Source: a virus
Length of the DNA stretch: 64,000 bases
Reading direction: 5' to 3' (one strand)
Virus record (IMG/VR): IMGVR_UViG_3300021180_000005
Location: 1 to 64,000 of that record
Under the pieces are notes generated by a model, which searched no databases, was not told the DNA's origin, and was given only the letters and a program-made list of their open reading frames with translations. The translations under genes were made by a program, and so were the position numbers. Each line of letters begins with the position of its first letter. Within the stretch, counting starts at the first letter, position 1. Of the stretch, positions 20,448-62,225 are shown in pieces.

Positions 20448-20523
20448 TGCATCTCCTAACAAGATTGAGCCGGGAGTGTGTTAGGCACTCCTCGGCTCTA
20501 GCCCATGGCCGCTAAACCATGAG
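20448..20523 (-). ncRNA. structured leader copy A (hairpin + pseudoknot over SD)
   Basis: CTCATGGTT-TAGC-GGCCATGGG CTAGAG ...GGAGTG-CCTAACA-CACTCC... TGTTAGG AGA. Confidence 0.75.
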
Positions 20524-21216
20524 ATGTTTATTTACTCCAAACGGAAAACTTACCATTAACTCATCGAAAGCAACTACCGCACCTTCTAAGAATTCCTCTA
20601 AGGTACCGTTGTTCTCTAGTATTAGGGACCAGTCCGTAGAGTCCTGCAATGCAGTTTCACTGATGTGCGTAGCAGGTGGTAATGAATTCCTATCCACTCG
20701 CACAGCCTCTCCGTATTGCTTACAAAACTGCATCTCGTTTTCAAACCTGAGGTCCGAAATAAGTGCTATCTGAGGTTTCTCCAGTTCAATTGTTTGAGCT
20801 AATTGTCGAACCCAATAATCTAGGTCTTGCGCCCTTCTGTACTCCGCTCCCCAGAATTGCAAGAGAGTTCTTTGCTTGCCCAAAGGACACATTGGATCGT
20901 CCATGGGAGCATTAGGATCGTACTGCACCCAGTCTGGAAAATCCATGTAGTATCCTTTGCACAACGCAAAGCGACGGTTGGGCTTAAATAGGTTCTCCAT
21001 GCCGCCTGCTTCTACAGCCGCAGCGTTCACTTCGCGTTTCAATGCATCTGCAAAGGCGTATCTACGGATATCGTAGCGGAATTCATTATCTGTTATTTGT
21101 TGCTTATAATCCGGCAGAGCTATGAGTCCGCGTTGTTTGATAATCTCGGCTACGGCTGTATCTTTACCACTTCTCGCACGATATCCGAAGCCAATCACGA
21201 CTGAGTCAATTGCCAT
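20512..21216 (-). CDS. deoxynucleoside monophosphate kinase
   Basis: GYRARSGKDTA, AFADALK, RTLLQFWG, ISDLRFENE, HISE. Confidence 0.9.
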   Translation of the reverse strand: MAIDSVVIGFGYRARSGKDTAVAEIIKQRGLIALPDYKQQITDNEFRYDIRRYAFADALKREVNAAAVEAGGMENLFKPNRRFALCKGYYMDFPDWVQYDPNAPMDDPMCPLGKQRTLLQFWGAEYRRAQDLDYWVRQLAQTIELEKPQIALISDLRFENEMQFCKQYGEAVRVDRNSLPPATHISETALQDSTDWSLILENNGTLEEFLEGAVVAFDELMVSFPFGVNKHLMV

Positions 21217-21398
21217 TATCGTAATGTAACCTTTCCTAGCTGTTTCAACTTTGCGTTGAGTTCGTATTTCGTTAAGTGAGTCTCCGAGTCCTTGAACAAT
21301 GCTACGCCGGGGACAACCACTTCTCCCAGTCCGTACGTATTAGCTACGTCAGACTGGGTACGGATGATGTATTCTTTTTGTTCGCTCATGCTCTCCAT
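21216..21398 (-). CDS. small hypothetical protein
   Basis: ORF coupled on both sides. Confidence 0.5.
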   Translation of the reverse strand: MESMSEQKEYIIRTQSDVANTYGLGEVVVPGVALFKDSETHLTKYELNAKLKQLGKVTLR

Positions 21399-23041
21399 TT
21401 ACCATTCTTTAATGTGACTATGGCTCTCTGGCCGTTGACGTACAGAACTACGTGGCTCCATGACCAGCTTGAAGGTCCGGTTGTATAATCCCAGCCTTCT
21501 GTCAGCTTGGATGATGTACCAGCTACATAGAGGCCATGATAAATCCCTGTTGCGTGGGTGTGTGCTGTGGTCGCTTTCTTGCCAACTTTGGCAAGGTTTG
21601 ACGGGCTACCGAACGTACCGTTAGGCCCTAGGTGACCGTGGCATGCAAGCTCAACTTCTTTGACTTCGTACGTCTCATCTGGAAGAAGGAATGAAACCTT
21701 ACCCGGCTCCAGTCCGCCTTCGTTCTCCATTACAAACTTCACTAGGTTGACGTTCTTCGCCAATTTACCTGCGCGGAGTTCGCTGTACATGAAGGACTGT
21801 AGTCGTAAAAAGATTTCAGTGTTGGGTGGATCGACGCGATAGTCGTATTCCTGCAACCAGCGCTTTAACCAAGAGCGATCATGGTTAGCGTCTGGGACAA
21901 TCGTGTTGCACCATGGACGAATGTACCTGTCCAGAACAGCTTTTGTTTGTCGAACTTCTTCATCGACTCGGTGCAGACCTCGTAACCACGCTGTGAACTT
22001 CTCGTGGATTGCTTTGTACTTTCGCATATGCGGATTGATGCTTACACCTTCTAACAGATCGTGTATGACCTGATGTTTGGGTTTAAGCTCGTCCAGCATA
22101 CCCATAGCAGAATCCACAACCTCAGGATGTACATTCGTTGCGTGTAAATCTCCCCATGTGATGGCTTCTACTTTTGCATCTGTAGAGATTACCTGACCGT
22201 CTTCTACGATGACGTTCAAGTCTTGTATGTTCTTTCCGTTCTTTCGTGACGCTACCTGCCGTACCCACCAATTACCATCTGCATCGACCTCAACAATGAG
22301 GAATGCATAACGGTGGTGATGTTCAGCTTTAATGCCTAGCTTCTTCTGAAGGTAATTCATAAGAGTGCAAGCACCCGTTGTATAAATCATCTTGACGGGT
22401 GTGTCAGGCATTGTAGCAATAGAGCGCATCTCGATCTTCGTATGAGGGAAGATGATGCTGTCTGACCCACCGTAGGTCTCAAGTCCAGAGATCGGATTGT
22501 CCTCGGTGGGAAGGATATTCATATTTCCGCTCCACTTCAGGCCGGGAGCTAAACGCCTTGGTACGTCCGCTATGTACGGTTGAATTTTAGGATCGTACCA
22601 TAGTTCATTTTCATGTGGCTTCTTGGTCCCGTTCTTGACGGCAAGTTTGCCAAAGTTATTCTGGTTGTAACTAAACGTGCCCACCAGAATCTGAGCACTG
22701 TAATGCTTTGCCATTGCTTCGACGTTCTTCCAGAAATCCTCGTGAACGAACGTGTTATTCTGGGCGGATGTCAGGATGTAGCGTTTGACATCTCCAGAGG
22801 TTGGTAGTGATTCTTTGATTTCGGCTGCACGCTGCTTACCTCCAGCGATGGGTTTTTTAATACCCAGTTTCTGAAGGTGTTCCCACACGGTACTACGTGC
22901 CAATCCCATAGCTCTAGCGATGTCAGGTACTTTACCTGCATACTTAGAGTATAGTTCAGCGATTTTCTTACGTTGTTGCTCTCCGTGTAGTTGATGCTTG
23001 CTGCGGCTAGCTTTCTGTCCCATTGGTTCCTCGTGTGACAT
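21386..23041 (-). CDS. HTH + metallophosphoesterase-like protein
   Basis: IARAMGLARSTV HTH; GDLH, HD, NHD, HGH, HTH motifs. Confidence 0.75.
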   Translation of the reverse strand: MSHEEPMGQKASRSKHQLHGEQQRKKIAELYSKYAGKVPDIARAMGLARSTVWEHLQKLGIKKPIAGGKQRAAEIKESLPTSGDVKRYILTSAQNNTFVHEDFWKNVEAMAKHYSAQILVGTFSYNQNNFGKLAVKNGTKKPHENELWYDPKIQPYIADVPRRLAPGLKWSGNMNILPTEDNPISGLETYGGSDSIIFPHTKIEMRSIATMPDTPVKMIYTTGACTLMNYLQKKLGIKAEHHHRYAFLIVEVDADGNWWVRQVASRKNGKNIQDLNVIVEDGQVISTDAKVEAITWGDLHATNVHPEVVDSAMGMLDELKPKHQVIHDLLEGVSINPHMRKYKAIHEKFTAWLRGLHRVDEEVRQTKAVLDRYIRPWCNTIVPDANHDRSWLKRWLQEYDYRVDPPNTEIFLRLQSFMYSELRAGKLAKNVNLVKFVMENEGGLEPGKVSFLLPDETYEVKEVELACHGHLGPNGTFGSPSNLAKVGKKATTAHTHATGIYHGLYVAGTSSKLTEGWDYTTGPSSWSWSHVVLYVNGQRAIVTLKNGKWRA

Positions 23042-23047
23042 GCCTAA

Positions 23048-23077
23048 AGTATATCACAGGCAGTCTGAATTTGTCAA
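23048..23077 (-). promoter_or_regulatory. sigma70-type promoter, probably leaderless mRNA
   Basis: TTGACA-18 nt-TATACT, 6 nt before ATG 23041. Confidence 0.7.
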
Positions 23078-23081
23078 CCTG

Positions 23082-23432
23082 TTATTTCTTGGCTTTTCTA
23101 CGTCTGCGTAAGGGCTGAGAAGTCAAAGCACGTAAGCATCCTGTTTGATCTGCTAGATCAAGCCGTACACCGTCTAGGGCTGCTACGGTTTTCTCAAGGA
23201 GTTCTATTTGCGTTACCCCTTGGGTTTGCAGCGTTGTTAGACAGTTGGTGCGCTGCTGTACCAACTCGGAGTGGATTTTACTTTGTTCTTCTTTCAATGT
23301 AATCCATTCTTTTCGTGCCTTGCGGAAGGGCCACATAATTACTCCTAGGAGGCCAGCGAAGATGGCCCCTAGCACTGTCTTGAGTGCTAATGGGGCCAGT
23401 TGAGATAATAGAGGGTCAGCTATAAAACGCAT
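23082..23432 (-). CDS. membrane protein (holin-like)
   Basis: AGGAG SD before ATG 23432; one TM then coiled coil. Confidence 0.55.
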   Translation of the reverse strand: MRFIADPLLSQLAPLALKTVLGAIFAGLLGVIMWPFRKARKEWITLKEEQSKIHSELVQQRTNCLTTLQTQGVTQIELLEKTVAALDGVRLDLADQTGCLRALTSQPLRRRRKAKK

Positions 23433-23472
23433 TGCCGTACTCCTGAAATTTAGTTGCGTGGGGAAGGAAGTG

Positions 23473-24855
23473 TTAATGAACAATGCAGACTACATCCGGG
23501 TCTGTTCCGGTTCTATACGTATCGCCTGCTACCAATCCACCTGCTATTGCTGCGGCATTGCTTGTGTAAACTACAAGGGAGTTTAAATTTATATGCGCAA
23601 GAGACAGTTTTCCTGATGTATTTCCAGTGGTTCCGTTTCCTATTGCTAATGAACCCGAAGCTAAGCGAGATATACTTACATCCCCAGAACCTATTGTGTT
23701 TGCCGCAGAAAATCGTATAGCTGCGCTGTTATATAAACTTACCCCAAAAGAAACATCTGTTAAAAAGACTACACCAGACCCCGCCCCTGTCCTTAGGTTT
23801 CCTTGGAATGTTCCTGAGGTATCTGCATACGTACCGTTGCCTACTCCCAATGTGGCCGCGCTAACTCTGTGAATGTTAAGATCGCGTGTCCCAAGGGTAC
23901 CCGGACAGAACCCCATGTCGCCTTGGCCTAGAATAGTAGTGCCAAACGCATAGTCAAATATAGTAGTTGTCGTTCCTTTTATAGCTATGCCTAATTCGTT
24001 GATGGCTGGACGGTATAGACCTAGTCCGGGCTCAGAATTAAAAGAGAATGATGGCGCTGTTTGTCCTTGATCATTTGACAATATACGGGCAACATAAGTG
24101 TATGCGTTTGTAGAAACACCTAAGTAATTATCTCCACCTGCGCAGTATATACCCCAATTGGTAGTTGCTGGGGTACCGGGAAGTTCTATGTATAACTGAG
24201 CATAGTTTGTAACTACTGAAGGACCTGTACCTGCCCCGTTGCCTGTTACTGGGGAACCAATATGCATTGCATATGCGTTGGTTATAGTGCCCACACCTTG
24301 CAAATAAAGCGCTGCGTTAACACCATAAACTGCAAATACAGGACCATGATCTCCAAGTGTACCGGAATTTCCATTTACTGCATATAAAAATTCTGCACTA
24401 CCTGTATTAAGATTGTAGGCTTCTCCTGATATACCAAACAAGTGCAATGCTGCTCCCGTACCATTGTGGTCTCCTTCTCCATGAATGCCACACAATTCAT
24501 TACTAAAAGACTGTGCGCAAGAGGGCAGCACATCTACTAATCCATTTATAGTGAAAACTTCTACCGCCGAGGTAGTAGTAGGATTCAAGAACGTATTAAA
24601 TGAGTACGGCAGGTTAAAAGAATTACGACTATTTCCTGTCGTATTAGTATTAGTATTCTCTGCGTAGATGAACGGTGTTGCTGCCAAGTCGAGATACCCA
24701 GCATTGCTATTGGGCCCTATTTGTACTGAACCAAGAGTTAGCATACCAGAACTATCTCCTACATTTCCGTTACCAATGGCTAAAGATGCTGGGTTTATAC
24801 GAGATATGCTAGAGTCTATCGACCCAAAAGTTACAAAAGGTGTAGATAGTGCCAT
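23473..24855 (-). CDS. tail fiber/spike-like protein
   Basis: Gly/Thr/Asn-rich; repeated ISR..A.LAIGNG; C-terminal NAAAIAGGLVAGDTY. Confidence 0.75.
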   Translation of the reverse strand: MALSTPFVTFGSIDSSISRINPASLAIGNGNVGDSSGMLTLGSVQIGPNSNAGYLDLAATPFIYAENTNTNTTGNSRNSFNLPYSFNTFLNPTTTSAVEVFTINGLVDVLPSCAQSFSNELCGIHGEGDHNGTGAALHLFGISGEAYNLNTGSAEFLYAVNGNSGTLGDHGPVFAVYGVNAALYLQGVGTITNAYAMHIGSPVTGNGAGTGPSVVTNYAQLYIELPGTPATTNWGIYCAGGDNYLGVSTNAYTYVARILSNDQGQTAPSFSFNSEPGLGLYRPAINELGIAIKGTTTTIFDYAFGTTILGQGDMGFCPGTLGTRDLNIHRVSAATLGVGNGTYADTSGTFQGNLRTGAGSGVVFLTDVSFGVSLYNSAAIRFSAANTIGSGDVSISRLASGSLAIGNGTTGNTSGKLSLAHINLNSLVVYTSNAAAIAGGLVAGDTYRTGTDPDVVCIVH

Positions 24856-24856
24856 T

Positions 24857-27256
24857 TTATAGTGCCTCCACTTTTATATGAAGCTCATATACCATTGCTG
24901 TGCCTGAAGATGTATATCCATAGGTAAATTGAATGTTAGTTCCGGTTTTAGCATACACTACCTCGCACCCGCCTACAGCTGTTCCTGTGGTATTTGCTGA
25001 GCTAGTAACGCTGTTTCCGGCTACTGTAGTTTTAACCACGCTATCTGTAGGTGAAGTGTATATTACTTGAAACCCGTTGGTCCCTCCTAATACAGACGTA
25101 GTGCCTGCTGTAGTAATTGTAGCTGACCATGATACTCTATACATACCCGTAGCTGTAGTTGTATATAATGTGGTTGCAGAGATAGCTGCAGATTGCACTG
25201 TAAGATCACTGGTTGCTAGCTCTGAAGGCACCCCGTTGGACACTGTGGAAATTCCGTTGTAAGTTCCTATTAATCCTTGAACTATTAAAGCGGGCACAGA
25301 AACAGAAGCTAGCCCAGAACTTCCAGTGTGAGCAAGCGTCAATGTGCTAGTAGGATTAGCCATTGATGCTAGTACATCTTGTATAGTCCAAGAGTCTATA
25401 GTAGAAACTGCGCCGTTAAAGTATGTACCACTAAGGGTTAAAATAGGAGAAGATTGGTTAGCTGCCGCGCCTGTGGCGGCTTTAAACGAGGCAATTGCCG
25501 TAGCTCCAGACTGCGGAGCTCCAGTATTTGTTGTCCAAGTCGGGTTTATAGAACTGGCACTTGTGTCTACTAAGTAAGCTGCCTGTCCAGCCTCATCCGC
25601 TACATTAAAATCAGAAAGTAGACCAGTAAATGAATCATTTATACTTCCAGTTGTCACTACTGCATTACTTCCCCAGCCTGTGATCGTTACGTCCCCTGTA
25701 GTGCGCGTTACACTTCCGGGTTGAAACGTAGAACCTGTACAAGGTCCACCATTTTCGTTATCAAACACTGAAGAAGTTGTTACAGTATTAGAGAATGCAT
25801 AAACAAACGCTACTGCAAAAGTACCTCCTCCCACTGTAAAAGTATGCCCTGCTCCCACTGTTGGACCAAAGGCATAAGCTATTCTAGTTTTATTAGCATT
25901 ATTTGTAGAGGTACGTGTAGTTAAGTAATTCCATGTATTTCCATTGCTGTCGGATATGGTAGCTACCGCACTGCTGGCTGTAACAACTGCTACCAGTAAA
26001 GTAGCTCCTGTAGTGTTCAAAGTTATGGGATTAGTACCATGAAGACTAGCCACACCGCTAGCTATAAATCCTACAGTCATAGGCGCTGAGGCCGCTGGAG
26101 TAGTGTTTGCCCATGTCCATACTGCTGAGGTTGTTTGATCGAACGTGGTAGTAAACGTAGAATTGGCAAGTGTTAAATTTGCTGCAGCATTCCCTAAAGT
26201 TGACCACGGAACACTAAACCCCGGACCTAGGTCTACTTTTCCTCCAGCTATTTGAAGTGCATAAGCGTTGGATAATGCTCCAGCTGTAGTTTGGTCTGCA
26301 ATAAAAAGTCCGATATGAGGACTTGTAAATGTTCCGCTGGTCAGCGGACTGTCAATATAAATCGTCACATCATTGACGTTTGTCCCGGTCGATCCGTTTC
26401 CTGATTGGGCGTATATTGCTATATTACTCTGAGTAGTGGCTCCGGGTCCGGTGTTGCTAGCGTTAGCTTGTATAGACCAGTTATCAGCTACGTGTCCTCC
26501 TGCTCTGTTTGTGGACTCAACTGCTAATGCTACATTTTTTGTGACTGTAGCTGTGCTCCACAGATTAGAAAAAGCCGATACTGCTGTAGTTTGTAAAAAC
26601 GTTCCAGTTCCAAAGTTATCTACTTGAAAATACCCAGCTACTGGACTTATAACACTTATGTTACCAGAGTATGTAGATGGTATAATAGCTTCGGCAATTA
26701 CTCCATACAAACCTGCATTCACTGCTCCTACTACGCCCACCGATATTCCTACGTTTGACCCACTTGAAGGAGAAGATGTGAAAGTTGCAGGAGCTACGTC
26801 AAAGGCCGAATAAGCCTGAGATGTGCCGGGAAATACTTCGCTATTAGCAATTCCATTTATTAATCCGGGAGTAGAGTTAGCACCTACACCAAGCACTGTA
26901 GGTATATACGTATCTCCTGTAGATTTTACAGTAGCAGCCGATCCGCCAAACACTCCGCTGTTATTGTACTGAATAGCGTTGACAGACCCTGCTGGTACGG
27001 CTGTGGGTACGTAAGCAGAAACATTTGACCCTATAACTTGGAACGTTACATTGGTATTTCCACCGGGAGCTGCTGGGGTAGTATTGTTAAAGTTTGGATT
27101 AGAAATACTTACACTATTTACCTTAACAGAAGACCCTGCACCTATGGCAGTGTCTATCAATATCATGTTATTTGCAAGTACTTCATCCATGCCCCATGTC
27201 GCTAGGCCTAAACTAGGTGTTACTTGTTCATCCCCACCGGGGTATATTAATGACAT
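24857..27256 (-). CDS. tail fiber-like protein
   Basis: 799 aa Thr/Ser/Ala-rich; AIQYNNSGVFGG motif. Confidence 0.75.
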   Translation of the reverse strand: MSLIYPGGDEQVTPSLGLATWGMDEVLANNMILIDTAIGAGSSVKVNSVSISNPNFNNTTPAAPGGNTNVTFQVIGSNVSAYVPTAVPAGSVNAIQYNNSGVFGGSAATVKSTGDTYIPTVLGVGANSTPGLINGIANSEVFPGTSQAYSAFDVAPATFTSSPSSGSNVGISVGVVGAVNAGLYGVIAEAIIPSTYSGNISVISPVAGYFQVDNFGTGTFLQTTAVSAFSNLWSTATVTKNVALAVESTNRAGGHVADNWSIQANASNTGPGATTQSNIAIYAQSGNGSTGTNVNDVTIYIDSPLTSGTFTSPHIGLFIADQTTAGALSNAYALQIAGGKVDLGPGFSVPWSTLGNAAANLTLANSTFTTTFDQTTSAVWTWANTTPAASAPMTVGFIASGVASLHGTNPITLNTTGATLLVAVVTASSAVATISDSNGNTWNYLTTRTSTNNANKTRIAYAFGPTVGAGHTFTVGGGTFAVAFVYAFSNTVTTSSVFDNENGGPCTGSTFQPGSVTRTTGDVTITGWGSNAVVTTGSINDSFTGLLSDFNVADEAGQAAYLVDTSASSINPTWTTNTGAPQSGATAIASFKAATGAAANQSSPILTLSGTYFNGAVSTIDSWTIQDVLASMANPTSTLTLAHTGSSGLASVSVPALIVQGLIGTYNGISTVSNGVPSELATSDLTVQSAAISATTLYTTTATGMYRVSWSATITTAGTTSVLGGTNGFQVIYTSPTDSVVKTTVAGNSVTSSANTTGTAVGGCEVVYAKTGTNIQFTYGYTSSGTAMVYELHIKVEAL

Positions 27257-27266
27257 ATTCTATTCC

Positions 27267-27740
27267 TTATTCTGGTGTTTGGAAAAACCTTTGCAAAGGA
27301 TTGGGCATGATGCGTTCTGTGTCTGCCTTAGGAAGAGCTTGCAGCTCTGCATCGCGCAAGGCTTTAGTAGCCATTTCCTCTGCATGTTCTAGCTCTTCTA
27401 GCTGTCTTTTTACTTCTTCTTTTGCCTTTAAGGCCCTATCTGCTTCTTCTTGCTTACGATTTAGTTCTTGTTCTATGGTTCTTTTTTCTTCAGCTTCTTG
27501 ACGTAAGCGTTCTGTCTCTACTGCGTGTGCGGCTTGGTCCGCTCGTTGTTTTCTTTCCTTAGCTTGTTTCTGTGCTTCACGCGCAGCGGTTTGTCTAGCT
27601 TCTTCTCTGCTCCTAGCTTCAGCTAGGTCTTTCATGGCCTGTTCATGAGCTGCTATGTGTTTTTTCTCTCGCTCTATAGTGATGCTTTCTAAAGCTTCTT
27701 GTACATCTAAAATCGTAGGTGTTTTCTTTGTTTCTTCCAT
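27267..27740 (-). CDS. charged coiled-coil protein
   Basis: E/K/A/R-rich; AGGAG SD before ATG 27740. Confidence 0.7.
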   Translation of the reverse strand: MEETKKTPTILDVQEALESITIEREKKHIAAHEQAMKDLAEARSREEARQTAAREAQKQAKERKQRADQAAHAVETERLRQEAEEKRTIEQELNRKQEEADRALKAKEEVKRQLEELEHAEEMATKALRDAELQALPKADTERIMPNPLQRFFQTPE

Positions 27741-27826
27741 ACTGAGTCTCCTAGTACTTAAAAATCTAGGGAGGCTTTGACTCCCTTTAGCCATGGATTT
27801 CACATGAAGTCGAGAGTAAATCTCGA

Positions 27827-28585: not shown

Positions 28586-28665
28586 GATGTTTAATTCCTT
28601 CCCCGGCGCATAGCCGGACCTTCAGGTTGTGGGGCTAGGCGAGTAGCCCCATTGCGTTAATATTC

Positions 28666-37125: not shown

Positions 37126-37754
37126 TATTGGACACTCCTTTTTGGACCCGGTGCTGGACGGTCCAATACAATTCCTAGACCATGTCCTCCTTGTTGCCCA
37201 CCTGGACTTGCTGTGCCGCTTCCTGTAGAAGGCAAAAGAGTAGATGCGTTAATTCCTGACATCTGTATTTGTATAGCCCCACCTAAATTTCCAAAAACTG
37301 TTGGCTTAGCAGGGTCTGATCCCGGCATTTGAGCGTAGCTTCTAAGATAATACGTATTCAGAGTTTTACCGTCGTTCTGAAACGTAGGTAAGTTTAAAAA
37401 AGAACTCCTAGATGTGCCATGGTCAATCACATGAGGCTGGGTAAAGTTAGGGTTCGTGTCTATTTCTGAAAAATATCTAATGCCTTTTTGTACGGGTTGA
37501 TTATGCACTATTGTGTGATGCAGAATCTCCCCCGGACAGATTATAACGCCGTTGCTGTACGCACCCTGCACATTTATGCTATCTACAGGAGGTGGAGGAA
37601 TTACTTTGCCAACCGCTGCTACACCTGCGTTTTTAGCCAAGGTGTTAACTGCAGTAATTATCCTATCAAACAGCGTACCTGCATAGGAATCCTTTTGGGA
37701 AATGAATGAAAGTTCCCTTCCCCCCGTAAGCTGCTCATTTGCTCCGCGTGCCAT
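37125..37754 (-). CDS. putative tail protein
   Basis: ORF after large tail gene; AGGAG SD lies inside the GIY-YIG gene. Confidence 0.6.
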   Translation of the reverse strand: MARGANEQLTGGRELSFISQKDSYAGTLFDRIITAVNTLAKNAGVAAVGKVIPPPPVDSINVQGAYSNGVIICPGEILHHTIVHNQPVQKGIRYFSEIDTNPNFTQPHVIDHGTSRSSFLNLPTFQNDGKTLNTYYLRSYAQMPGSDPAKPTVFGNLGGAIQIQMSGINASTLLPSTGSGTASPGGQQGGHGLGIVLDRPAPGPKRSVQ

Positions 37755-38520
37755 ACAGTTCTCCTTTTAACTTCAAAGCCAAAACATTGGCTTCTTCTTT
37801 TTTTGTAAACCTTCCAAATTTTTTAGTCTTACCTTTTATCCAAAGTACAACTGTCCATTTATCTGCTTCTTTGTCCCAGTATACACCTTTGGCTGTTCCT
37901 TTATTCCACGCAGGAATTCCTTTATGGGATTCTGATAGTTTTCTACGTGTCTCTTCTTTAGTCTTTATACCAAACTTCTTTACATATGAATCATGTTTGA
38001 ACTTTCTACATATTTCACAACGGCAATTCTTTTTGCCGTAAGCATAGCTTGTGCCGTGCTTCCATCCTGCTTTCCATGGAGCAGGTTTGCCTAGTTTTGC
38101 TTTTCTCATTTTGCTCTTTGAATGAGCACTGTGCTTCATACCAAAGAATGAGTTTCCAGAACCCTTGCGAGAGTTTCCTATGGTCTTCCTGAATTTCTTA
38201 AGTTGAGAGGCAGTATATGGCACTCCTGCAGTTCCATCCCCACCGTCAGCAATATTATAGCCATTCGGTGTTTTTGTTTTCAACTTAACTATGTACTTTT
38301 TCTCAAGTCTATTCAATTCTTCTCTTGTTCTGCAAACTGTAAGCGTTCGTATAGTGAAATTTTCTTTTCCATACTTTAGTAGTGCATGTACCAAAGCGTG
38401 CGGTCCACGATTTCTCTTAGCATCAGAACCGTGACTACTCCACCTCTTTTTTAAGGTTTGTATAGTTTGTCCTACGTATTTTTTACCATTGACTTTGTTT
38501 GTTATTAAATAAACTTGCAT
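37735..38520 (-). CDS. GIY-YIG homing endonuclease (NUMOD3-like, Zn module, AP2-like end)
   Basis: VYLITNKVNGKKYVGQT, PNGYN, NSFFGMKHS, KLSESHKG..WNKG. Confidence 0.92.
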   Translation of the reverse strand: MQVYLITNKVNGKKYVGQTIQTLKKRWSSHGSDAKRNRGPHALVHALLKYGKENFTIRTLTVCRTREELNRLEKKYIVKLKTKTPNGYNIADGGDGTAGVPYTASQLKKFRKTIGNSRKGSGNSFFGMKHSAHSKSKMRKAKLGKPAPWKAGWKHGTSYAYGKKNCRCEICRKFKHDSYVKKFGIKTKEETRRKLSESHKGIPAWNKGTAKGVYWDKEADKWTVVLWIKGKTKKFGRFTKKEEANVLALKLKGELYGTRSK

Positions 38521-38599
38521 TTACTTATCTCCGAGAAAGTTGAGAAGGGAGGTGTTCTCGGCACCTCCCCGCTCTAGCCCAGAACCGCTAAGTTCTGAG
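38521..38599 (-). ncRNA. structured leader copy B
   Basis: CTCAGAACT-TAGC-GGTTCTGGG CTAGAG ..GGGAGGTG-CCGAGAA-CACCTCCC.. TTCTCGG AGA. Confidence 0.75.
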
Positions 38600-38607
38600 A
38601 TACTTCT

Positions 38608-38618
38608 ATTATACCACA
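38608..38618 (-). promoter_or_regulatory. extended -10 promoter overlapping the tail-gene stop
   Basis: TGTGGTATAAT 8 nt upstream of leader B. Confidence 0.55.
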
Positions 38619-53969: not shown

Positions 53970-54256
53970 TACTTCTCCGAGTCGTCTTTGTGATCATCCT
54001 TTTTAAATGCCCCTACAATCTTACCTATACCGTATGGTGCTGTAGAGAATGTAGCAAGAGAGCCTATTACCAAGGGTAAGTTTCCCATCCACACCGATAG
54101 TTTATCAACAGGTTGTGACATCATGTGCCTAAATATAAACCATATCAACGCCATAGATGATAACGACAACCATGTACTGGTTATGCGAGAGGAACTGGGA
54201 GAGCCATTCTCGCTAAACGCTTTACCAAGGAAAGACCAAACGCGTTCCATGTTCAT
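53969..54256 (-). CDS. small membrane protein (holin-like)
   Basis: SSSR motif, two hydrophobic segments, charged tail. Confidence 0.55.
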   Translation of the reverse strand: MNMERVWSFLGKAFSENGSPSSSRITSTWLSLSSMALIWFIFRHMMSQPVDKLSVWMGNLPLVIGSLATFSTAPYGIGKIVGAFKKDDHKDDSEK

Positions 54257-54265
54257 ACTGTGCCT

Positions 54266-55399: not shown

Positions 55400-55405
55400 A
55401 TTACT

Positions 55406-55507
55406 CTAGCCCCATGTCCATCCGCAGATACATTTCAAAACTTCTGCTAAGCTTGATTTTCTCAACTCGCGCCCACACAATGGGCACTTGCGCATCCAGA
55501 AGTACAC
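55406..55507 (-). CDS. Zn-ribbon miniprotein (33 aa, not in ORF track)
   Basis: GAGG SD; KCPLCG...KCICGW. Confidence 0.5.
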   Translation of the reverse strand: MYFWMRKCPLCGRELRKSSLAEVLKCICGWTWG

Positions 55508-55520
55508 AAAGCACCTCTAT

Positions 55521-56375
55521 TTACCAACTCAAAAAACTAAACTCGTTATTAAGGTCCCCATCACTATTACCAAATGGAATGCGATGTATTGTCTCGTGCT
55601 GCATACGCCGTATATTAGCGTTTTTCAATGCGAACATTTGTGCAGCTGCTTCTGCTTTTAAATCCGCTAGACCCGGTGACCCCAACATGGTTGCGTATAG
55701 CACAGCAGTTTCAAACGCTAGGAAATCCGTACAATCAGGTACAGGTACAAACGTAGCGTTAAAATCCAGCGTTGGGCTGAAGAACTGAGGTAGAGAACAA
55801 TAGTACCGCATGCGAATATCTCTCTGCGATGTTGCTCCTATGAAATTCAGCTTAAGATTACGCCATTCCCAGTATCTTAAATGCCTGCCTTGCAAAAGGC
55901 TAGGCAATCCCCCGGAGGGTGCCTCCATATCCCTAAAAGGATCGTTTGACCCTGTAGAGCGTTCCCATAACTTTGTAGGGTACAACATATCATTTGGTAA
56001 TATAAAGTTGGGCCAAATCTGTGTACCATCAAAGTACCCTTCTGGTCCTAAAAAGGTCTGTATCGAAGGGTCAGAACTGCCCATGCCTTGCGTTGGGCTG
56101 TTGATAATAGGCAAACCTGTGACAATGACATTATCACGAATTAGAACTGGATCACCTACTCCTCTTAGCGATCTGTACAGCTTTCGTATAGATGAATTAA
56201 GCATCGGTTGAACGAAAGGCGAGATTGCTGGATTGTCGGTAAAAATTTGTCCTTCTCCCGGCGTATTCGTAGCACCTGCCTGAGAGTCGTTAATGAGCGC
56301 CCTGATCAAATTACAAATTGTTTCCAAACTAGTACTGCTGTCCGCCTGAGGCAGATTAAGTGTAGGTGATGACAT
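55521..56375 (-). CDS. head-tail adaptor-like protein
   Basis: LP.D.L...LWER, YWEWR, position; family inferred. Confidence 0.6.
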   Translation of the reverse strand: MSSPTLNLPQADSSTSLETICNLIRALINDSQAGATNTPGEGQIFTDNPAISPFVQPMLNSSIRKLYRSLRGVGDPVLIRDNVIVTGLPIINSPTQGMGSSDPSIQTFLGPEGYFDGTQIWPNFILPNDMLYPTKLWERSTGSNDPFRDMEAPSGGLPSLLQGRHLRYWEWRNLKLNFIGATSQRDIRMRYYCSLPQFFSPTLDFNATFVPVPDCTDFLAFETAVLYATMLGSPGLADLKAEAAAQMFALKNANIRRMQHETIHRIPFGNSDGDLNNEFSFLSW

Positions 56376-56378
56376 TTT

Positions 56379-57380
56379 CTAATCCTTTAAAACTCTTAGC
56401 CATTGCTTGGCACTACGCCTAGCGTAAATAACCAGTTTTATACTGTTAAACAACGCGCTTATAACACCTAGTGGACATAGCTGCCGAGATATGCCATTCT
56501 CTATGGCTTTCACATTTGTCTCTGGAACAATAGACAAGAAAGAAGCCCACGGTACTTGAGAAGAACAAAGCAAAGGTGTATATACGGACACCGCATCTGC
56601 TGCAGTTAAGCAAAATGTTTCGGTAAAAGATACGCACATTGCTAAGTCCATCTTGCTCATTGTCACAAGGAAAGCCCTACGCTCTAACCAAGGCAGTTCC
56701 TTAAGAGTATGCTGTGTATTAGCAAACAGAGACCTGAGATTCTTTAACACTTCTTCTCCTCCCTGCTCTACTCTGGAGTTTACGTAGAAGTGCAGCTCTT
56801 TGCTTTTGTTATTGGCATAACTTATTGCTGCCATGGCTTGCTCTAGGTGGTTTTTCAGTGGACGTATTGCTCCGAAGCATCCTATATGCAATGCTGGATG
56901 TTTAAATTCACTATCATACCTAGTCTCTGGGTAGTAATTAGGAAGGTATAAGAAACCTCTACTGCTGCCTGCTGCTTCTTTGAAAGTTTCTCTTGCTCTT
57001 TTATCGTTAAATGCTACGTACACGCCTCGCTTTATGTACTCAAAAACCCATGACACCGCTACGCCTTCGCTGGCTAAGAATGGCACATCGCTATGCAGTC
57101 TTACTATCCACTTAACGTTTGGATGCAGATTTTTCAATATGTCGAATTTCTCTGGTACAACCCACAGAGCTTCTACTATAACCACGTCTGGTCTAAACTC
57201 GGTTACTTCTTTGTCTATACCGTTGTTATCCACTACGGTCACTAACTCAGCGTCAACTCCGTTATCTCGTAGCATATCCACTACAAACTTTGCAGAATTA
57301 AAAAGGCCGCTTGAATTGTAGTGGTGCTTACCACCGCCGTGTGTATAGCCATTTTTCTTAAGTATAAATAGTACTTTCAT
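56379..57380 (-). CDS. GT4-like glycosyltransferase
   Basis: GAIRPLKN, SFTETFCLTAADA; GGAG SD before ATG 57380. Confidence 0.78.
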   Translation of the reverse strand: MKVLFILKKNGYTHGGGKHHYNSSGLFNSAKFVVDMLRDNGVDAELVTVVDNNGIDKEVTEFRPDVVIVEALWVVPEKFDILKNLHPNVKWIVRLHSDVPFLASEGVAVSWVFEYIKRGVYVAFNDKRARETFKEAAGSSRGFLYLPNYYPETRYDSEFKHPALHIGCFGAIRPLKNHLEQAMAAISYANNKSKELHFYVNSRVEQGGEEVLKNLRSLFANTQHTLKELPWLERRAFLVTMSKMDLAMCVSFTETFCLTAADAVSVYTPLLCSSQVPWASFLSIVPETNVKAIENGISRQLCPLGVISALFNSIKLVIYARRSAKQWLRVLKD

Positions 57381-57462
57381 TGTCAAGTCTCCATTGCAGG
57401 TTTGGGGGTTTCTGTAATGGACTTGGCCAGTAGGTCCAAAGTATTTGCGATATAAATAAGCA

Positions 57463-57615
57463 TAGGGGGAGTGGAGCAATATACCTCTAACGGACTCAGA
57501 TCGTTAGTTGTTTATACTCACACTCCCCCTAAGGTCTAGTGCTAAAATTACATGGCACCCTACTAATTACACACTGCAATGCGTGACTCAGAAACGCTAT
57601 GCGAGTTTTCATTTT
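57463..57615. ncRNA. candidate structured intergenic RNA with two GACTCAGA loops
   Basis: TAGGGGGAGTG/CACTCCCCCTA outer stem; CTAACG-GACTCAGAT-CGTTAG; GCGT-GACTCAGAA-ACGC. Confidence 0.45.
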
Positions 57616-57641
57616 CAAGTACCAAGCTTGGTACTAATCTC

Positions 57642-58226
57642 TTAATGACGAGCAGCAATCTCTTTGCAAAGTGCTATGAATTCATCATGTGACAAACTTT
57701 GTTTTGCAAGGTTTGCATCCTTACAACATGGTACGCAGTTCTTTAGCGTATAACCTATAGCTGAGTCTAAACGGTCAATTCCGTTATATGTGTAGGTATC
57801 ATTACCTACCAAAGATAAACCACGTTTGGTTCTATTTCGTGAACTTACAGATGTGTATATGTTTGATGGTTCTCTACCTGTGTAATAGCAGGGAGATTCC
57901 GTAAGTTTTCTAAACTGTTCCTGAGTCAGTTCCCACATAATGCCACGGCTTTTAGCTTGACCTTTGTAATTTCCAAATAGTCCACTAAACTCTGGATTGC
58001 TCACTGTACGAAGACAACCACAGCTGCCTACACGGTTAGACCTTAGCTCATTAGTAGGGACATTTTTAGTATTACCACAGTCACAAAAGCATTGCCACGC
58101 TGTGATTCCATTTTCACTGATGCGTTTTTGCACCACTAAGCGCCTAAAGCGCTGTCCTTCTAAGTCTAAGTGCGCTTTTATTTTTCTAGGTGCTAAATCT
58201 TTACTTCCTTTTGGTCTTCCTAACAT
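57642..58226 (-). CDS. HNH-like homing endonuclease with AT-hook-like start
   Basis: GRPKGSKD, CFCDCG, SCGC, GIDRLDSAIGYTLKNCVPCC. Confidence 0.88.
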   Translation of the reverse strand: MLGRPKGSKDLAPRKIKAHLDLEGQRFRRLVVQKRISENGITAWQCFCDCGNTKNVPTNELRSNRVGSCGCLRTVSNPEFSGLFGNYKGQAKSRGIMWELTQEQFRKLTESPCYYTGREPSNIYTSVSSRNRTKRGLSLVGNDTYTYNGIDRLDSAIGYTLKNCVPCCKDANLAKQSLSHDEFIALCKEIAARH

Positions 58227-58302
58227 GATACCTCCTTCAAAGGTCGAGAAGGGAGCAGTTGAAGGCTGCTCCCAACTCTGACTCAGGATTATAAGCCCTG
58301 AG
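58227..58302 (-). ncRNA. structured leader copy C
   Basis: CTCAGGG-CTTATAA-TCCTGAG TCAGAG ..GGGAGCAG-CCTTCAA-CTGCTCCC.. TTGAAGG AGG. Confidence 0.75.
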
Positions 58303-58313
58303 GTATTAAAAAT

Positions 58314-59156
58314 TTACTTCTTTTCCATAGGCAGTTGAGGCGATGGCTGAGTCATAGTTTGTTTTGGGGCGTATTTCAAGTTCTCCGTAGCTTCAAAAGC
58401 TTGTGCCCTAGAACGTACACCTGCCTTAATTGCAGAATCCCAGTCTCCAACGCACAGCCCACCACCTTCAAGAGCGTGGAACGGTGCTCCAACTTTGGCA
58501 GGTTGGCCACAACGTGGGCAACTGTCTAGGTGGACCTCGCGTTTATGCCAGTTAAAAGTTTCGTGAAAGTATTCAGCCGCTGCGTGATGCGCCGGGGTTA
58601 ACATTGCTGATAGTGACGCAGGATTAGAAGTCTCTACTGCACGTGCTTCTGTAAGAAGTCCACGGTAATGCTGTTCTAACCTACGTGTAGCAGCGGCTAG
58701 CTCTGTCTCATTAGGCTTCTCGTTGGTAGACCAGAATACTCCCAGTCTTCCTAGATTTTGACCAACAGAGAAACTATTGGTAATGACTGCGTCTTGGTCT
58801 AAAGAAAGATTGTCAGGATTGACAATGTCCATAGCCATGCGACGACCATCGATAACAACAATATCGATATCGTTTGAGTCTACATTTCCCTTTGGGAACT
58901 TAAAAGGAGAAGGTAGTGAGGTAACTACGGCGTACTTTTCCCCTTCCTTACGTGCCGGAATGATCATCTCTTTGATCAGCGGTAGGCGGGAAATCTTATA
59001 TTCTTGCTTTGCGATGTTGAATAGATATACAAAAAAATCTGCTGGGCGACTAAGCATATAGTCGGCAGTAGAAAAGTTCCAATCAATATTGTTGGCTCTA
59101 GTCATACCGTCGCTTAGGTCTGGTCGTCCCTGAGGTCTGCTGCATGTTGCTTCCAT
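58314..59156 (-). CDS. hypothetical protein with CxxC...H...C
   Basis: 280-aa ORF, AAGGAG SD. Confidence 0.7.
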   Translation of the reverse strand: MEATCSRPQGRPDLSDGMTRANNIDWNFSTADYMLSRPADFFVYLFNIAKQEYKISRLPLIKEMIIPARKEGEKYAVVTSLPSPFKFPKGNVDSNDIDIVVIDGRRMAMDIVNPDNLSLDQDAVITNSFSVGQNLGRLGVFWSTNEKPNETELAAATRRLEQHYRGLLTEARAVETSNPASLSAMLTPAHHAAAEYFHETFNWHKREVHLDSCPRCGQPAKVGAPFHALEGGGLCVGDWDSAIKAGVRSRAQAFEATENLKYAPKQTMTQPSPQLPMEKK

Positions 59157-59197
59157 TTGTTACTCCTTGAGTCTTCTGAGTTTGTAATTCTTAGTTG

Positions 59198-59929
59198 TTA
59201 AACAGGGTTGGTATGTGCTGATAATCCACGTCCGAGTTTACTTGCCGTGGTCATCATTTTATTCCAATTCCTTTGCATAGCTTCTATTTTTTTGTCAATC
59301 AGCGCAGTACGACACCCTTGACGCTGATAAGATACAGGATTTCCCTTAAATGGTACTGCGTTGCTTCTCATAACGTCTTCTATCATGGCAATATCTGCTT
59401 TATCTTCTCTTTCTTTCAAATCTGCCATAACGGCCTTGGTTTTTTCCCAACTGATGTCTTTAGCCGCCACTATGATAGGAACCACTGTGTCTAGAAGGAA
59501 CGTATTGAGAGGCATCATCTCAAATAAGAGCTTGCCGTTTCTCATTTCACTCCAACGTAAATTGTAAAGCATTTGATAACGTCCACTGTATGGGTACTCA
59601 CCTAGTATCTGCAAACCGGAATCTTCATCAAAGTTTTGTATATAATAAATTTCCGGTGTACCATACTCCAACGCGTCGTGCCATTGTAAAAGTGCCCAGC
59701 AGGGAACTCCTCCCCCTATGAGAAGGTCTCGGTACCCTGTATAACCTATCTGGTCTTCTCCAGCCCATGCACCTCCTGCTCTGTACATAGACCGTGGGTC
59801 TCCACCTTGCGACCAAACCAGTAAAAAGTTTGGATCATCATAGCGGTTAACCCCACCAATAGCCGTGAGTCTTTCTTGAAATTCTTCAGGGCATAAATTC
59901 TGCTGGTAACTAGCTGTTAGACTGGGCAT
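59198..59929 (-). CDS. hypothetical protein
   Basis: 243-aa ORF in late operon. Confidence 0.7.
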   Translation of the reverse strand: MPSLTASYQQNLCPEEFQERLTAIGGVNRYDDPNFLLVWSQGGDPRSMYRAGGAWAGEDQIGYTGYRDLLIGGGVPCWALLQWHDALEYGTPEIYYIQNFDEDSGLQILGEYPYSGRYQMLYNLRWSEMRNGKLLFEMMPLNTFLLDTVVPIIVAAKDISWEKTKAVMADLKEREDKADIAMIEDVMRSNAVPFKGNPVSYQRQGCRTALIDKKIEAMQRNWNKMMTTASKLGRGLSAHTNPV

Positions 59930-60194
59930 TATTCATTGCCTCTCGCTGTGCTTGTACTTGCGCTTTTTTCACTTCTACATACACGTCAATTTCCTGACGA
60001 TCTGTAATTCCTAGTTTCTTTTCTAGGATGAAGTTAAGCAGTAACGCTGCAGTGTCTGCCATGCCCATAAGCTCATTGTCATTAGAAGCTAGCTTCATAA
60101 ACAACGTGTGTGCCTCACGTCTGGACATAGGAGCATCCCAGTACTTATCGTAAGGTTGTTGAATCGGTGAATCTGAACTTATGATCTGAGTCAT
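59910..60194 (-). CDS. hypothetical protein
   Basis: 94-aa coupled ORF. Confidence 0.6.
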   Translation of the reverse strand: MTQIISSDSPIQQPYDKYWDAPMSRREAHTLFMKLASNDNELMGMADTAALLLNFILEKKLGITDRQEIDVYVEVKKAQVQAQREAMNNAQSNS

Positions 60195-60598
60195 TTGTTC
60201 CTTTCAATATAATCAGCTACTTTTCTCATCCTATCAGGATTGTCATTGAACAAGCCCATACCTCTGTTGCATTTAGTATGTACTATACCTCTTATTTTAC
60301 CTGTCAAGTGGTCATGGTCTACTGGAGGGAATCTATCGCCGTTTTCTTTCTCAGGTAGAGGTTCTTCGCAGGCTGCGCATAACCCTTTCTGCTCTTTCCA
60401 TCTTTGTGCATATTGCTCTGGTGTTAATCCAAAGCTACTTTTTAATGAGCTTTTTCTATGGGATTCTATGGTTTTTTCTGGATTTCTATTTCGCCATTCC
60501 TTAGTATGTGTGTTCTTGCACTCTAAGCAAACTAATCTCCCACCCTGTTGCACCTTAACATGACCCTGTGGACATGTAGATGTACTTGGCCTACCCAT
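60191..60598 (-). CDS. endonuclease VII-like homing endonuclease
   Basis: FGLT.EQY...QKGLCAAC...VDHDHLTGKIRGIVH..CN. Confidence 0.9.
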   Translation of the reverse strand: MGRPSTSTCPQGHVKVQQGGRLVCLECKNTHTKEWRNRNPEKTIESHRKSSLKSSFGLTPEQYAQRWKEQKGLCAACEEPLPEKENGDRFPPVDHDHLTGKIRGIVHTKCNRGMGLFNDNPDRMRKVADYIERNK

Positions 60599-61229
60599 TG
60601 CTACTTTCCAATCCTTCTTCTGCGGTGTTTTCTCTTTCTACCATACGTATGTCCTGTACACGTACCACGCGTAAGCCTTCTGGGTCTGGTTCATAGTTCA
60701 TTTGCACTGAATCACAGAGTACTTCTACTTTTTTCTCATCCATAATGAATACCTCTGAGTTGTAATCACCATAGGTAACACGATCTCCTACACGTACCAC
60801 ATCTCTCATGGGTATTTTCTGTCCACCAAGGATTACGAATTGTCCGACTGCAAGCACAATACCTACATTAGAGTGCTGTCTGTACTTCGCAGCAATGACA
60901 AGTCCTGTCTTTGTGTTTAGAACGCTGCCATCTTCCATGATCTTCATGTCTGAGTTTTCTGCACATCTCTTAATCAGTACACGGTCAAGAATAGGTGATC
61001 CCGAAGCATAGGTCTTATCTGGGTATTTCTTTGGCGCTAATGGAGCTTCTTTAACCTCTGTAGATAACCAATTAGTACGCCTATCAATGACTGTTATACC
61101 TGAACCAAGTTCTTGTGGTTCTTCTGGTGCTACATTTCGTAGTTCAATCGGATCGTTTACTGTGCTTCCACCTGCTGAAAACTGTGCACTGCGTGCGCCC
61201 CTAGCTAGGGAATCGCCTCCGTTTAACAT
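60591..61229 (-). CDS. GroES-like co-chaperonin with N-terminal extension
   Basis: PILDRVLIK, TKTGLVI, GIVLAVG, VRVGDRV. Confidence 0.75.
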   Translation of the reverse strand: MLNGGDSLARGARSAQFSAGGSTVNDPIELRNVAPEEPQELGSGITVIDRRTNWLSTEVKEAPLAPKKYPDKTYASGSPILDRVLIKRCAENSDMKIMEDGSVLNTKTGLVIAAKYRQHSNVGIVLAVGQFVILGGQKIPMRDVVRVGDRVTYGDYNSEVFIMDEKKVEVLCDSVQMNYEPDPEGLRVVRVQDIRMVERENTAEEGLESSNG

Positions 61230-61263
61230 GATTGAGTCTCCTGAGTCTTTTAATGTAATACTA

Positions 61264-61345
61264 CCCCGGCTATCCAGTCTCGGCGTGTTTGCGCAAGGAG
61301 ACTGGGGCCGAGGTTATGCCTGCACTAGGCGCAAACCTACGCAGG
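61264..61345 (-). ncRNA. candidate kissing-loop RNA element
   Basis: two stems whose loops carry TTTGCG and CGCAAA. Confidence 0.5.
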
Positions 61346-61357
61346 ACAAAGTTGTGC

Positions 61358-61391
61358 AAAACAAAAGGCCCTGCGAGGTTTAGCAGAGCCT
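61358..61391 (-). terminator. intrinsic terminator
   Basis: AGGCTCTGC/GCAGGGCCT followed by TTTGTTTT. Confidence 0.7.
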
Positions 61392-61398
61392 GTGAATC

Positions 61399-61611
61399 TT
61401 AAACCAATTTTGCCAACTCCGCTTTAGCTGCGGCGACTACCTTAACCGCATCCGCGATGATCAACGGGTTAAGCTTATTAAGGTCCGTTACAATGGCCGC
61501 TTCTACTATTGGCGCTTCCTTCACAAACGCAGCCTTAATCTTTCGTCCAATGCTAGGCGTAAACGCACCTACTACGTATGCTGCTACGCCACCTGCAATG
61601 AGTTCTACCAT
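61399..61611 (-). CDS. small Ala/Val-rich protein with hydrophobic N-terminus
   Basis: GGAGG SD before ATG 61611. Confidence 0.65.
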   Translation of the reverse strand: MVELIAGGVAAYVVGAFTPSIGRKIKAAFVKEAPIVEAAIVTDLNKLNPLIIADAVKVVAAAKAELAKLV

Positions 61612-61637
61612 ACAATTACCTCCACGGGGGTTAAAGG

Positions 61638-62150
61638 TTACTGAGTACTGTTGTGTTTCTGAGTCCAAAATCTAAGGTATTGCATTGCCCGGTCAAGCCA
61701 TGTACCGGGGATGGGTGTGAAATCTCCCTGAGCTAGTAGTATTTCTAAATTACCCAGCTTATGGTTGCACTCCCAACACAATAATCCACGAAGGCATTTT
61801 CCACATGACACTTTTCTATCACAACATGAATGTTCGTGGTCAATGTGCAATCTTACGTGAAAACCTGTACCCTCAGTTGCTGGGCACAATGCACAGTGTC
61901 CTTCTTGCAACTTTAACTTATCTTCGTAGTAATTTTTAGGAGCATGGTGCTTTCTGGCATTGCCATACTTTTTATAAAGAGACTTATCGCGCTCTTTTGC
62001 TCCTTCTCTGCACACCTTACAGCCTTTGTTAAATCTTGAATCCTCTTCAAATGTTTTGTGGAACCCACACCACTTCAGACCTTTATCTTTTGCTTCTCTG
62101 TACGCCTCTGTAGTGATGCCATATTTATATAGTCGTGCTTGTCTTCTCAT
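61638..62150 (-). CDS. endonuclease VII-like homing endonuclease
   Basis: QEGHCALC, LHIDHEH.CC...SCGKCLRGLLCWECN. Confidence 0.9.
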   Translation of the reverse strand: MRRQARLYKYGITTEAYREAKDKGLKWCGFHKTFEEDSRFNKGCKVCREGAKERDKSLYKKYGNARKHHAPKNYYEDKLKLQEGHCALCPATEGTGFHVRLHIDHEHSCCDRKVSCGKCLRGLLCWECNHKLGNLEILLAQGDFTPIPGTWLDRAMQYLRFWTQKHNSTQ

Positions 62151-62225
62151 TTTCTCTCCTCTGCAAAGGTCAAGCAGGGCCTGTTGCAGCAGGCCCCACT
62201 CTAGTACTGGGTAATTAGTCCAGCA
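62151..62225 (-). ncRNA. structured leader copy D
   Basis: GCTGG..CCAGT ACTAGAG ..GGGCCTG-CTGCAA-CAGGCCC.. TTGCAG AGGAG. Confidence 0.7.

Follow-up and report, generated by a model that had tools for sequence, protein, structure and literature searches.

Structures that sequester the ribosome-binding site (RBS) control the homing endonuclease genes I-TevI, I-TevII, I-TevIII and segB, as well as mobE of Aeh1; in the T-even phages the sequestering hairpins are simple, gene-specific and relieved by a late promoter inside the structure, and many of the T4 seg and mob genes are promoter-less cassettes (PMC2988022). The element considered here is a leader of about 85 nucleotides (nt) that occurs in four copies on the minus strand of a window of 64,000 nt, the first 64 kb of the 103,649-bp IMG/VR virus record IMGVR_UViG_3300021180_000005 (completeness estimate 93%), where it heads nuclease open reading frames (ORFs) or, in one case, an 11-codon remnant. 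Its predicted helices and a loop-loop complementarity are shown by covariation among 108 distinct leaders. Given that the predicted pairing masks the Shine-Dalgarno (SD) sequence, translational control is the natural reading, and the leader is probably a portable, SD-masking translational brake for homing endonucleases, borne on cassettes and forming an uncatalogued RNA family. The kind of control is already known from RBS sequestration in T-even phages (PMC2988022); the RNA family is new.

The likeness to the T-even leaders lies in a cis RNA structure that would hide the SD of a homing endonuclease ORF and hold translation down, and in genes that often form cassettes without a promoter, transcribed from promoters farther upstream. 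The differences are that one homologous three-hairpin leader is here common to GIY-YIG, HNH and endonuclease VII-like genes, that masking of the SD falls to a loop-loop contact together with a mini-stem, and that there is no conserved internal promoter, the promoters of two copies (D and I, below) preceding the whole leader. Kissing between separate RNAs is familiar from the antisense control of ColE1 RNA I/RNA II and from HIV TAR/TAR*, in which loops of 6-7 nt are fully complementary. The present leader likewise has two hairpin loops of 6-7 nt that are complementary over their whole length, whereas here a single mRNA leader carries both, 0-3 nt apart, and the SD lies within the target loop. 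Translation of the IncI-alpha/ColIb-P9 repZ mRNA is likewise governed by a hairpin loop that pairs with a strand beside the RBS, in an activator pseudoknot whose formation switches translation on and can be prevented by an antisense RNA; unlike in repZ, the paired strand here includes the SD itself, which argues for repression. No homing endonuclease leader, pseudoknot or kissing loop of this design appears in the literature found, which comprised T4 reviews only, a 2023 viral catalogue of more than 10,000 candidate RNAs (PMC10690425) lying outside the comparison.

Nine leader copies in a soil phage genome

The first-pass annotation had placed four copies of a leader on the minus strand, each with a hairpin loop complementary to a downstream strand. 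All four lie where they had been put, and the complementarity is exact in each. Every copy is a succession of three hairpins, P1, P2 and P3, ending in the SD and ATG; the strand complementary to the P2 loop is called the partner strand, and bit scores are those of the model described below.

20445-20526, minus strand: leader copy A, 76 bits; P1 20523-20502; P2 20498-20467, loop 20485-20479 (CCTAACA); partner 20461-20455 (TGTTAGG); P3 stem ATCT 20465-20462 / AGAT 20454-20451; ATG 20447-20445
38518-38602, minus strand: leader copy B, 87.9 bits; P1 38599-38578 (UAGC loop); P2 38574-38542, loop 38561-38555 (CCGAGAA); partner 38537-38531 (TTCTCGG); ATG 38520-38518
58224-58306, minus strand: leader copy C, 86 bits; P1 58302-58282 (loop CUUAUAA); P2 58278-58246, loop 58265-58259 (CCTTCAA); partner 58240-58234 (TTGAAGG); P3 stem ACCT 58244-58241 / AGGT 58233-58230; ATG 58226-58224
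62148-62228, minus strand: leader copy D, 67 bits; P1 62225-62205 (loop with UAAUUA); P2 62201-62172, 6-nt loop 62189-62184 (CTGCAA); partner 62166-62161 (TTGCAG), abutting the SD AGGAG at 62160-62156; ATG 62150-62148

The P1 and P2 hairpins also fold as had been claimed in all four copies, with minimum free energy z-scores between -2.6 and -3.8. A simple scan for the layout turned up a fifth copy beyond the window, and a covariance model was built from these five with the pairing of P2 loop and partner left out of it. Searched with this model, the 104-kb genome yielded eight copies, all on the minus strand, and a ninth, divergent one (copy I) is visible by eye, for a genome total of nine. The loops and partners of further copies read CCAUUAA/UUAAUGG, CCAAUA/UAUUGG, CCUAAUC/GAUUAGG and CCACGAA/UUCGUGG, and those of copy I, which precedes a nuclease gene at genome positions 77949-78299, CCCUAAA/UUUAGGG.

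Beyond this genome, a pattern scan of IMG/VR returned 10 contigs, eight of them with strong matches to the leader model; they are fragments of related phages with 65-75% nucleotide identity to genome positions 64-77 kb. A broader set of relatives, 80 loci around a conserved 863-amino-acid (aa) neighbour gene, was searched with the same model and gave 148 matches, 108 of them distinct and all co-oriented with the neighbouring genes, at 0 to 9 copies per genome. A pattern scan of 185,579 prokaryote genomes produced 24 matches, approximately the number expected by chance; none of these passes the model (best 16 bits), and there is consequently no prophage or host lead. The family's host lineage is a group of roughly 100-kb uncultured soil phages. 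The genome sequence is almost fully present in two soil metatranscriptomes, no cultured phage matched a 7.4-kb stretch or leader C at the nucleotide level, and the closest cultured phage, by way of an A1-like DNA-transfer protein, is Pseudanabaena phage Pan1 at 44% identity.

The first-pass annotation had also failed to recognize the leader as a described family, and with respect to Rfam that judgement holds. At the gathering threshold Rfam 15 gave no match on the whole window, and at permissive thresholds none fell on the leader at E<=10 near copy B or at E<=5 on ten loci with 15 leaders; int-alpA (RF02996) and the Pistol ribozyme (RF02679), each tested directly, were without a match in the 104-kb genome at E<=10.

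Compensatory change in every helix

In the 108 distinct sequences, paired cells amount to 94% in P1, 95-98% in P2, 84% in the loop-loop helix and 72% in P3, values that none of 500 shuffles reached and that compare with 42-52% in slid controls. Every one of the five helices contains compensatory changes, and 28 of the 30 pairs have changed on both sides; a four-genome subset gives the same picture. The covariation proposed for the leader is thus real. The loop-loop pairing can also be seen free of any alignment, as at least six contiguous Watson-Crick pairs join the P2 loop to a strand that follows P2 by about 5 nt in 101 of the 108 leaders (7 nt in 63, 6 nt in 38). When tails were permuted among sequences, the mean number of such matches was 5 in 108 and the maximum 13. 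There are 49 different P2-loop sequences among the 108, and the seven leaders that fail are visibly decayed copies without SD or ATG.

P1 has 6-9 bp, and the very stable P2 carries a loop of 6-7 nt that is usually CCNNNNA. The 3-5 nt flanking the partner strand pair mutually and covary, forming the P3 stem of 3-5 bp, of which the types ACCU/AGGU, AUCU/AGAU, GUCC/GGAC, AACU/AGUU, GCCU/AGGC, CUCU/AGAG and GUCU/AGAC occur; a P3 stem of at least 4 bp is found in 46% of leaders against 19% after permutation, and one P3 pair is CG in 52 sequences and UA in 15. The partner strand is therefore the loop of P3, and the contact is of the loop-loop (kissing) type rather than a plain H-type pseudoknot: at the level of sequence both partners are hairpin loops, complementary over 6-7 nt. 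This partner overlaps or abuts the SD, which always lies in or touches the masked strand, and the SD is split, its first part (GG) falling in the P3 loop and the rest (AGG or AGA) in the P3 3' strand. As in the T-even phages, then, the SD of the nuclease ORF is base-paired within a conserved upstream structure (GG in the kissing strand, AGG in P3).

All leader matches share the orientation of their ORF, with SD and ATG in fixed register, and on the sense strand G-U pairs outnumber A-C pairs 183 to 101. The conserved unpaired stretches are YUA before P2 and GA(C/U)CU after it. The P2 strands keep a G-rich 5' and C-rich 3' orientation (GGGAG/CUCCC). In most copies, for example at 38570-38562 with 38554-38546, the 5' strand of P2 resembles a strong SD (GGGAGGUG) and the 3' strand resembles the 3' end of 16S rRNA (CACCUCCCUU); P2 is perhaps more than a spacer, serving as an SD decoy or an anti-SD mimic. 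A closing stem S0, in which a 5' flank AUCUC pairs with the SD GAGAU in copies A-C, was rejected, being paired in 62% of cases against 60% in shuffles and hence not conserved. Leaders begin with AUCUCAG or ACCUCAG, related to ACTCAG, and genome-wide ACTCAG occurs 49 times on the minus (sense) strand and 23 times on the plus strand.

The loops of P1 fall into discrete classes. A 6-nt palindrome (TGATCA, TCATGA, TTATAA, TAATTA or TTCGAA) is carried by 46 of the 108 (43%), these palindromes differ mutually by paired substitutions, and eight loop types out of 28 are palindromic, where shuffles give 2.2 and none of 2000 has more than 7. The dimerisation initiation site of HIV-1 has a palindromic hexamer in a hairpin loop, which the palindromic P1 loops resemble; unlike it, the palindrome is not universal in the leader family, and those made of A and U alone are weak, their predicted duplex energy being close to nil. 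Self-complementarity is lacking in about a third of P1 loops (UUAGCGG, GUUGCU), and no consistent partner for non-palindromic loops was found in cis or between loop classes. The palindromic loops hint at P1-P1 kissing.

Cassettes, nuclease genes and promoters

Leader and nuclease ORF are, by genome comparison, one inserted cassette placed exactly between adjacent conserved genes. When the genome studied here (G000), which carries loci B, E, F and G, is compared gene by gene with a collinear relative (G001), the flanking genes at these loci are adjacent in the relative, with gaps of 44, 11, 9 and 67 bp, and the corresponding gaps in G000, of 855, about 550, 488 and 530 bp, equal the leader plus its ORF; the 488-bp insert at locus F, for example, consists of a 79-nt leader and a 417-nt ORF. 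The reverse case also exists, a leader and endonuclease VII gene standing in G001 where G000 has a gap of 29 bp. Leaders start 0-8 nt past the upstream stop codon or overlap the last codons of the upstream gene (A, E). At locus E, between homologous flanks, the leader with loop CCAUUAA is followed by an HNH_3 gene in G000 and by one of GIY-YIG type (NUMOD3) in the related contig L029, which means that leaders and ORFs recombine. The genes and promoter motifs adjoining the four window copies are as follows.

37735-38520, minus strand: GIY-YIG + NUMOD3 homing endonuclease gene behind B (PF01541 1e-13, PF07460)
57642-58226, minus strand: HNH/endonuclease VII-like nuclease gene behind C (phrog_374 4.5e-16, phrog_1035 1.7e-14; no Pfam match)
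61638-62150, minus strand: endonuclease VII-family nuclease gene behind D (PF02945 7e-10)
20412-20447, minus strand: 11-codon ORF behind A, then a GC-rich hairpin and T-run; no nuclease left, a 'solo' leader
62240-62268, minus strand: sigma-70-like promoter upstream of D (TTGACG, 17 nt, TATACT, TG before the -10), 10/12
38608-38616, minus strand: extended -10-like TGGTATAAT overlapping the TAA stop of the 1652-aa upstream gene; no -35 found

The genes expected behind B (GIY-YIG), D (endonuclease VII-like) and A (an 11-aa remnant) are indeed there, and the one behind C, earlier called HNH, lacks a Pfam match and matches PHROG families of HNH/endonuclease VII type. At locus B the last 20 nt of the nuclease gene are at the same time the start of the following gene. 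Family-wide, 83 distinct downstream ORFs of at least 80 aa include 29 Endonuclease_7, 15 HNH/HNH_5, 14 NUMOD3, 11 GIY-YIG, two HNH_3 and two AP2 matches, with no further recurring family among them; single-linkage clustering put 78 downstream ORFs into one group. This tabulation of Endonuclease_7, HNH and GIY-YIG/NUMOD3 ORFs bears out the earlier idea of a portable structured-RNA module common to unrelated nuclease families. Solo leaders with a perfect fold and loop pairing lie at 20412-20526 (minus) of the window, the case of copy A, and at L032:4385, L066, L069:4805, L027:3278 and L054:4777 in related contigs. A leaderless endonuclease VII-like gene at 60191-60598 (minus) overlaps its neighbouring ORFs by 4 and 8 nt, an arrangement that suggests translational coupling instead of a leader. 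Adjoining cassette C is a GT4-like glycosyltransferase gene, 56379-57479 (minus), which is absent from G001; a soil DNA-run contig of a related phage skips 56375-57461, and is thus also without this gene.

Of the promoter motifs that had been noted just upstream of B and D, the one at D is a full sigma-70-like promoter, whose score alone is weak (about one such site in shuffled regions), and the one at B is only an extended -10 without a -35. Copy I carries its own promoter, TTGACA/TGGTATACT, upstream of the whole leader. Across the family no conserved promoter lies in or just before the leader, the upstream profile being an A-rich stretch and the letters of stop codons, and no late promoter was found inside the leader, the phage's own late-promoter type not having been identified. 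Only some cassettes, then, bring a promoter: D, copy I and perhaps B.

Leaders C and D are both spanned by RNA-library contigs from the two soil metatranscriptomes; contigs of this kind say nothing about where transcripts end or how abundant they are. A neighbouring intron appears in spliced form in these libraries, which therefore contain real RNA of this phage. The gene concerned is split here into 62327-63220 and 63890-64354 (past the window end) and is a single 443-aa ORF, 96% identical, in G001. Its interruption of about 690 nt holds a LAGLIDADG ORF at 63278-63748, and soil RNA contigs of two libraries join 63216 to 63910, the spliced form being deeper than the unspliced. The Rfam group I intron model scores 20.5 bits on the interruption, below threshold, and a DNA-run relative keeps the intron without the ORF (skipping 63286-63758). 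The interruption resembles a group I intron that carries a homing endonuclease; the gene it splits is highly conserved and probably structural. In the related contig L032, a sub-threshold group I intron match at 454-1083 (minus; 33 bits, E 7e-5) lies just upstream of a decayed leader at 94-175 that has neither loop partner nor ATG. Genuine tRNA-Trp and tRNA-His genes are present in the window at 17916-18072 (minus).

How the leader may act

On the reading preferred here, that of an SD-masking brake, the P2 loop would pair with the P3 loop, and the contact and the P3 stem would together bury the RBS; the nuclease would be translated only rarely from read-through transcripts of the invaded operon, and its low output would limit both nuclease damage and interference with neighbouring genes. 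Judged by this anatomy, masking most likely lowers translation. Several points weigh against the reading. P3 alone is weak, with a mean of -1.5 kcal/mol. About ten leaders precede decayed ORFs (11 codons behind A, 4-46 codons behind others), and those among them that stay intact could have a role of their own. Endonuclease VII-like genes without a leader exist in the same genome, namely the gene at 60191-60598 and another at genome positions 84623-85294 (minus), so that the leader is not obligatory. Finally, within one molecule an intact P2 and P3 leave no way for the loop-loop helix to form, and masking would need either partial unfolding or a second RNA.

This last point follows from geometry. 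P2 has 11.8 +/- 1.1 bp (-19 kcal/mol), the strand connecting P2 to the partner 5.3 +/- 0.8 nt, and the linker between P2 and P3 0-3 nt (mode 2), and the loop duplex is worth -6.9 kcal/mol with the intermolecular penalty included. By A-form estimates, the bases of two kissing stems are 45-60 Angstrom apart, beyond the reach of a 0-3 nt linker, and the connector of an H-type pseudoknot would have to cover some 40 Angstrom or more of helix surface, a distance that 5 nt can span at the extreme limit if at all. The static H-type pseudoknot of the first-pass annotation must consequently be given up as sterically very strained, with a P2 of about 12 bp set against a connector of about 5 nt, three of which form the covarying P3. 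The covarying helices cannot all coexist in one molecule, and the leader is therefore either a two-state cis element or one that pairs between two molecules.

In the cis version, a state with full P2 and P3 and a weakly covered SD would alternate with one in which the base of P2 and P3 are open and about 10 nt span the upper P2 in an H-type pseudoknot of the partner strand with the P2 loop. Rough energies favour the pseudoknot, given that the loop duplex outweighs P3 plus a 3-bp basal helix, and many copies have an internal loop or bulge that separates this basal helix from the rest of P2; covariation in every helix would fit selection on both folds. However, nothing evident would trigger the switch, a longer P2 does not come with a longer linker (correlation -0.36), and the basal helix covaries strongly (AU 50, CG 35 at one pair) and is thus formed in a selected state; a switch of this kind is possible but held only tentatively. 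The trans version, in which kissing would join the P2 loop of one transcript to the P3 loop of a second copy of that leader, and dimers or head-to-tail oligomers would lock the SD to a degree set by concentration, is the only one that allows P1, the full P2 with its basal GAG/CUC helix, P3 and the loop-loop helix to form at once, and its fully complementary loops of 6-7 nt are like those of ColE1 RNA I/RNA II. The palindromes of 46 of the 108 P1 loops, changing by paired substitutions, may help in part of the family, although the third of P1 loops that lack self-complementarity and the weak AU-only palindromes speak against a general role. Co-resident leaders can share the same loop (as in L045, L067 and L117), so no orthogonality is enforced, and repression would be kinetically less sure than in cis. 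Nor do the lengths of P2 and of kiss plus P3 compensate each other (correlation -0.12), and a dimer of three equal rods was rejected, P2, kiss and P3 together making 22.4 +/- 1.5 steps against about 19 for a P1-P1 rod. Pairing in trans is thus doubtful though plausible, and the more specific picture, of nuclease messages that dimerise or chain through P2-loop/P3-loop kissing, with P1 palindromes as a third contact in part of the family and silencing that rises with concentration, is rather unlikely.

A different possibility is that the leader is no constitutive brake and instead a riboswitch-like sensor of a ligand or protein, through autoregulation by the nuclease or a phage translational repressor. 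The conserved YUA and GA(C/U)CU stretches and the maintained G-rich and C-rich strands of P2 would suit such a function, and I-TevI does autoregulate, though at the DNA level (PMC2988022). Against it, there are few conserved single-stranded bases, most of them accounted for by P3 or the SD, none of the riboswitch models gives a match, unrelated nuclease families share the leader, which makes autoregulation by each unlikely, and the variable P2 loops rule out loop-specific protein recognition; a sensor is accordingly improbable. The ligand sensor and the ribozyme entertained in the first-pass annotation fare poorly together, with few conserved unpaired bases and no ribozyme or riboswitch model match. 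Pistol, common in phage-like DNA, does have a hairpin loop fully paired to a downstream strand, a trait it shares with the leader; the leader departs from Pistol in its far longer stem, in having no counterpart of the P3-type cleavage helix, and in a partner strand that bears the SD, with the ATG after it. RNase E processing near T4 segB and segG and Aeh1 mobE (PMC2988022) similarly lends some colour to a processing signal that would separate the nuclease message from the operon transcript. Yet beyond the lack of a Pistol match no ribozyme family matches at E<=5, no invariant set of unpaired bases resembles a catalytic core, and the RNA-library contigs cross leaders C and D unbroken, a weak point as contigs cannot show ends; self-cleavage or processing is very improbable. 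Hardly credible is an element acting at the DNA level or on the opposite strand, whether a tRNA-like gene on the plus strand or a recombination or homing site. ARAGORN calls a tRNA-Phe(GAA) at 58226-58309 (plus), opposite leader C, and the leader that heads different ORFs at one locus could serve as homology for ORF exchange; but the call is an artefact of P1 and P2, made in copy C alone of the nine, the G-U pairs frequent on the sense strand would turn into A-C mismatches in a plus-strand RNA, the supposed anticodon loop covaries with a neighbouring strand, unlike in any tRNA, and every copy is co-oriented with an SD and ATG in fixed register.

Homing endonucleases need enough expression to spread without harming the phage, and so far only the gene-specific hairpins of the T-even phages explain how this is achieved. 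The brake reading adds to these a single RNA module that is portable, covaries with unusual clarity (49 loop 'codes'), serves three unrelated nuclease families and travels as a cassette. The leader family could enter Rfam and serve in the annotation of mobile nuclease cassettes from metagenomic phages. Structurally, it raises the clear-cut question of a cis switch or a trans kissing dimer; should pairing in trans prove true, the leader would be an RNA-only dosage sensor with a programmable 'address' of 4-5 nt in each copy. More broadly, it would constitute a natural, reprogrammable translation lock.

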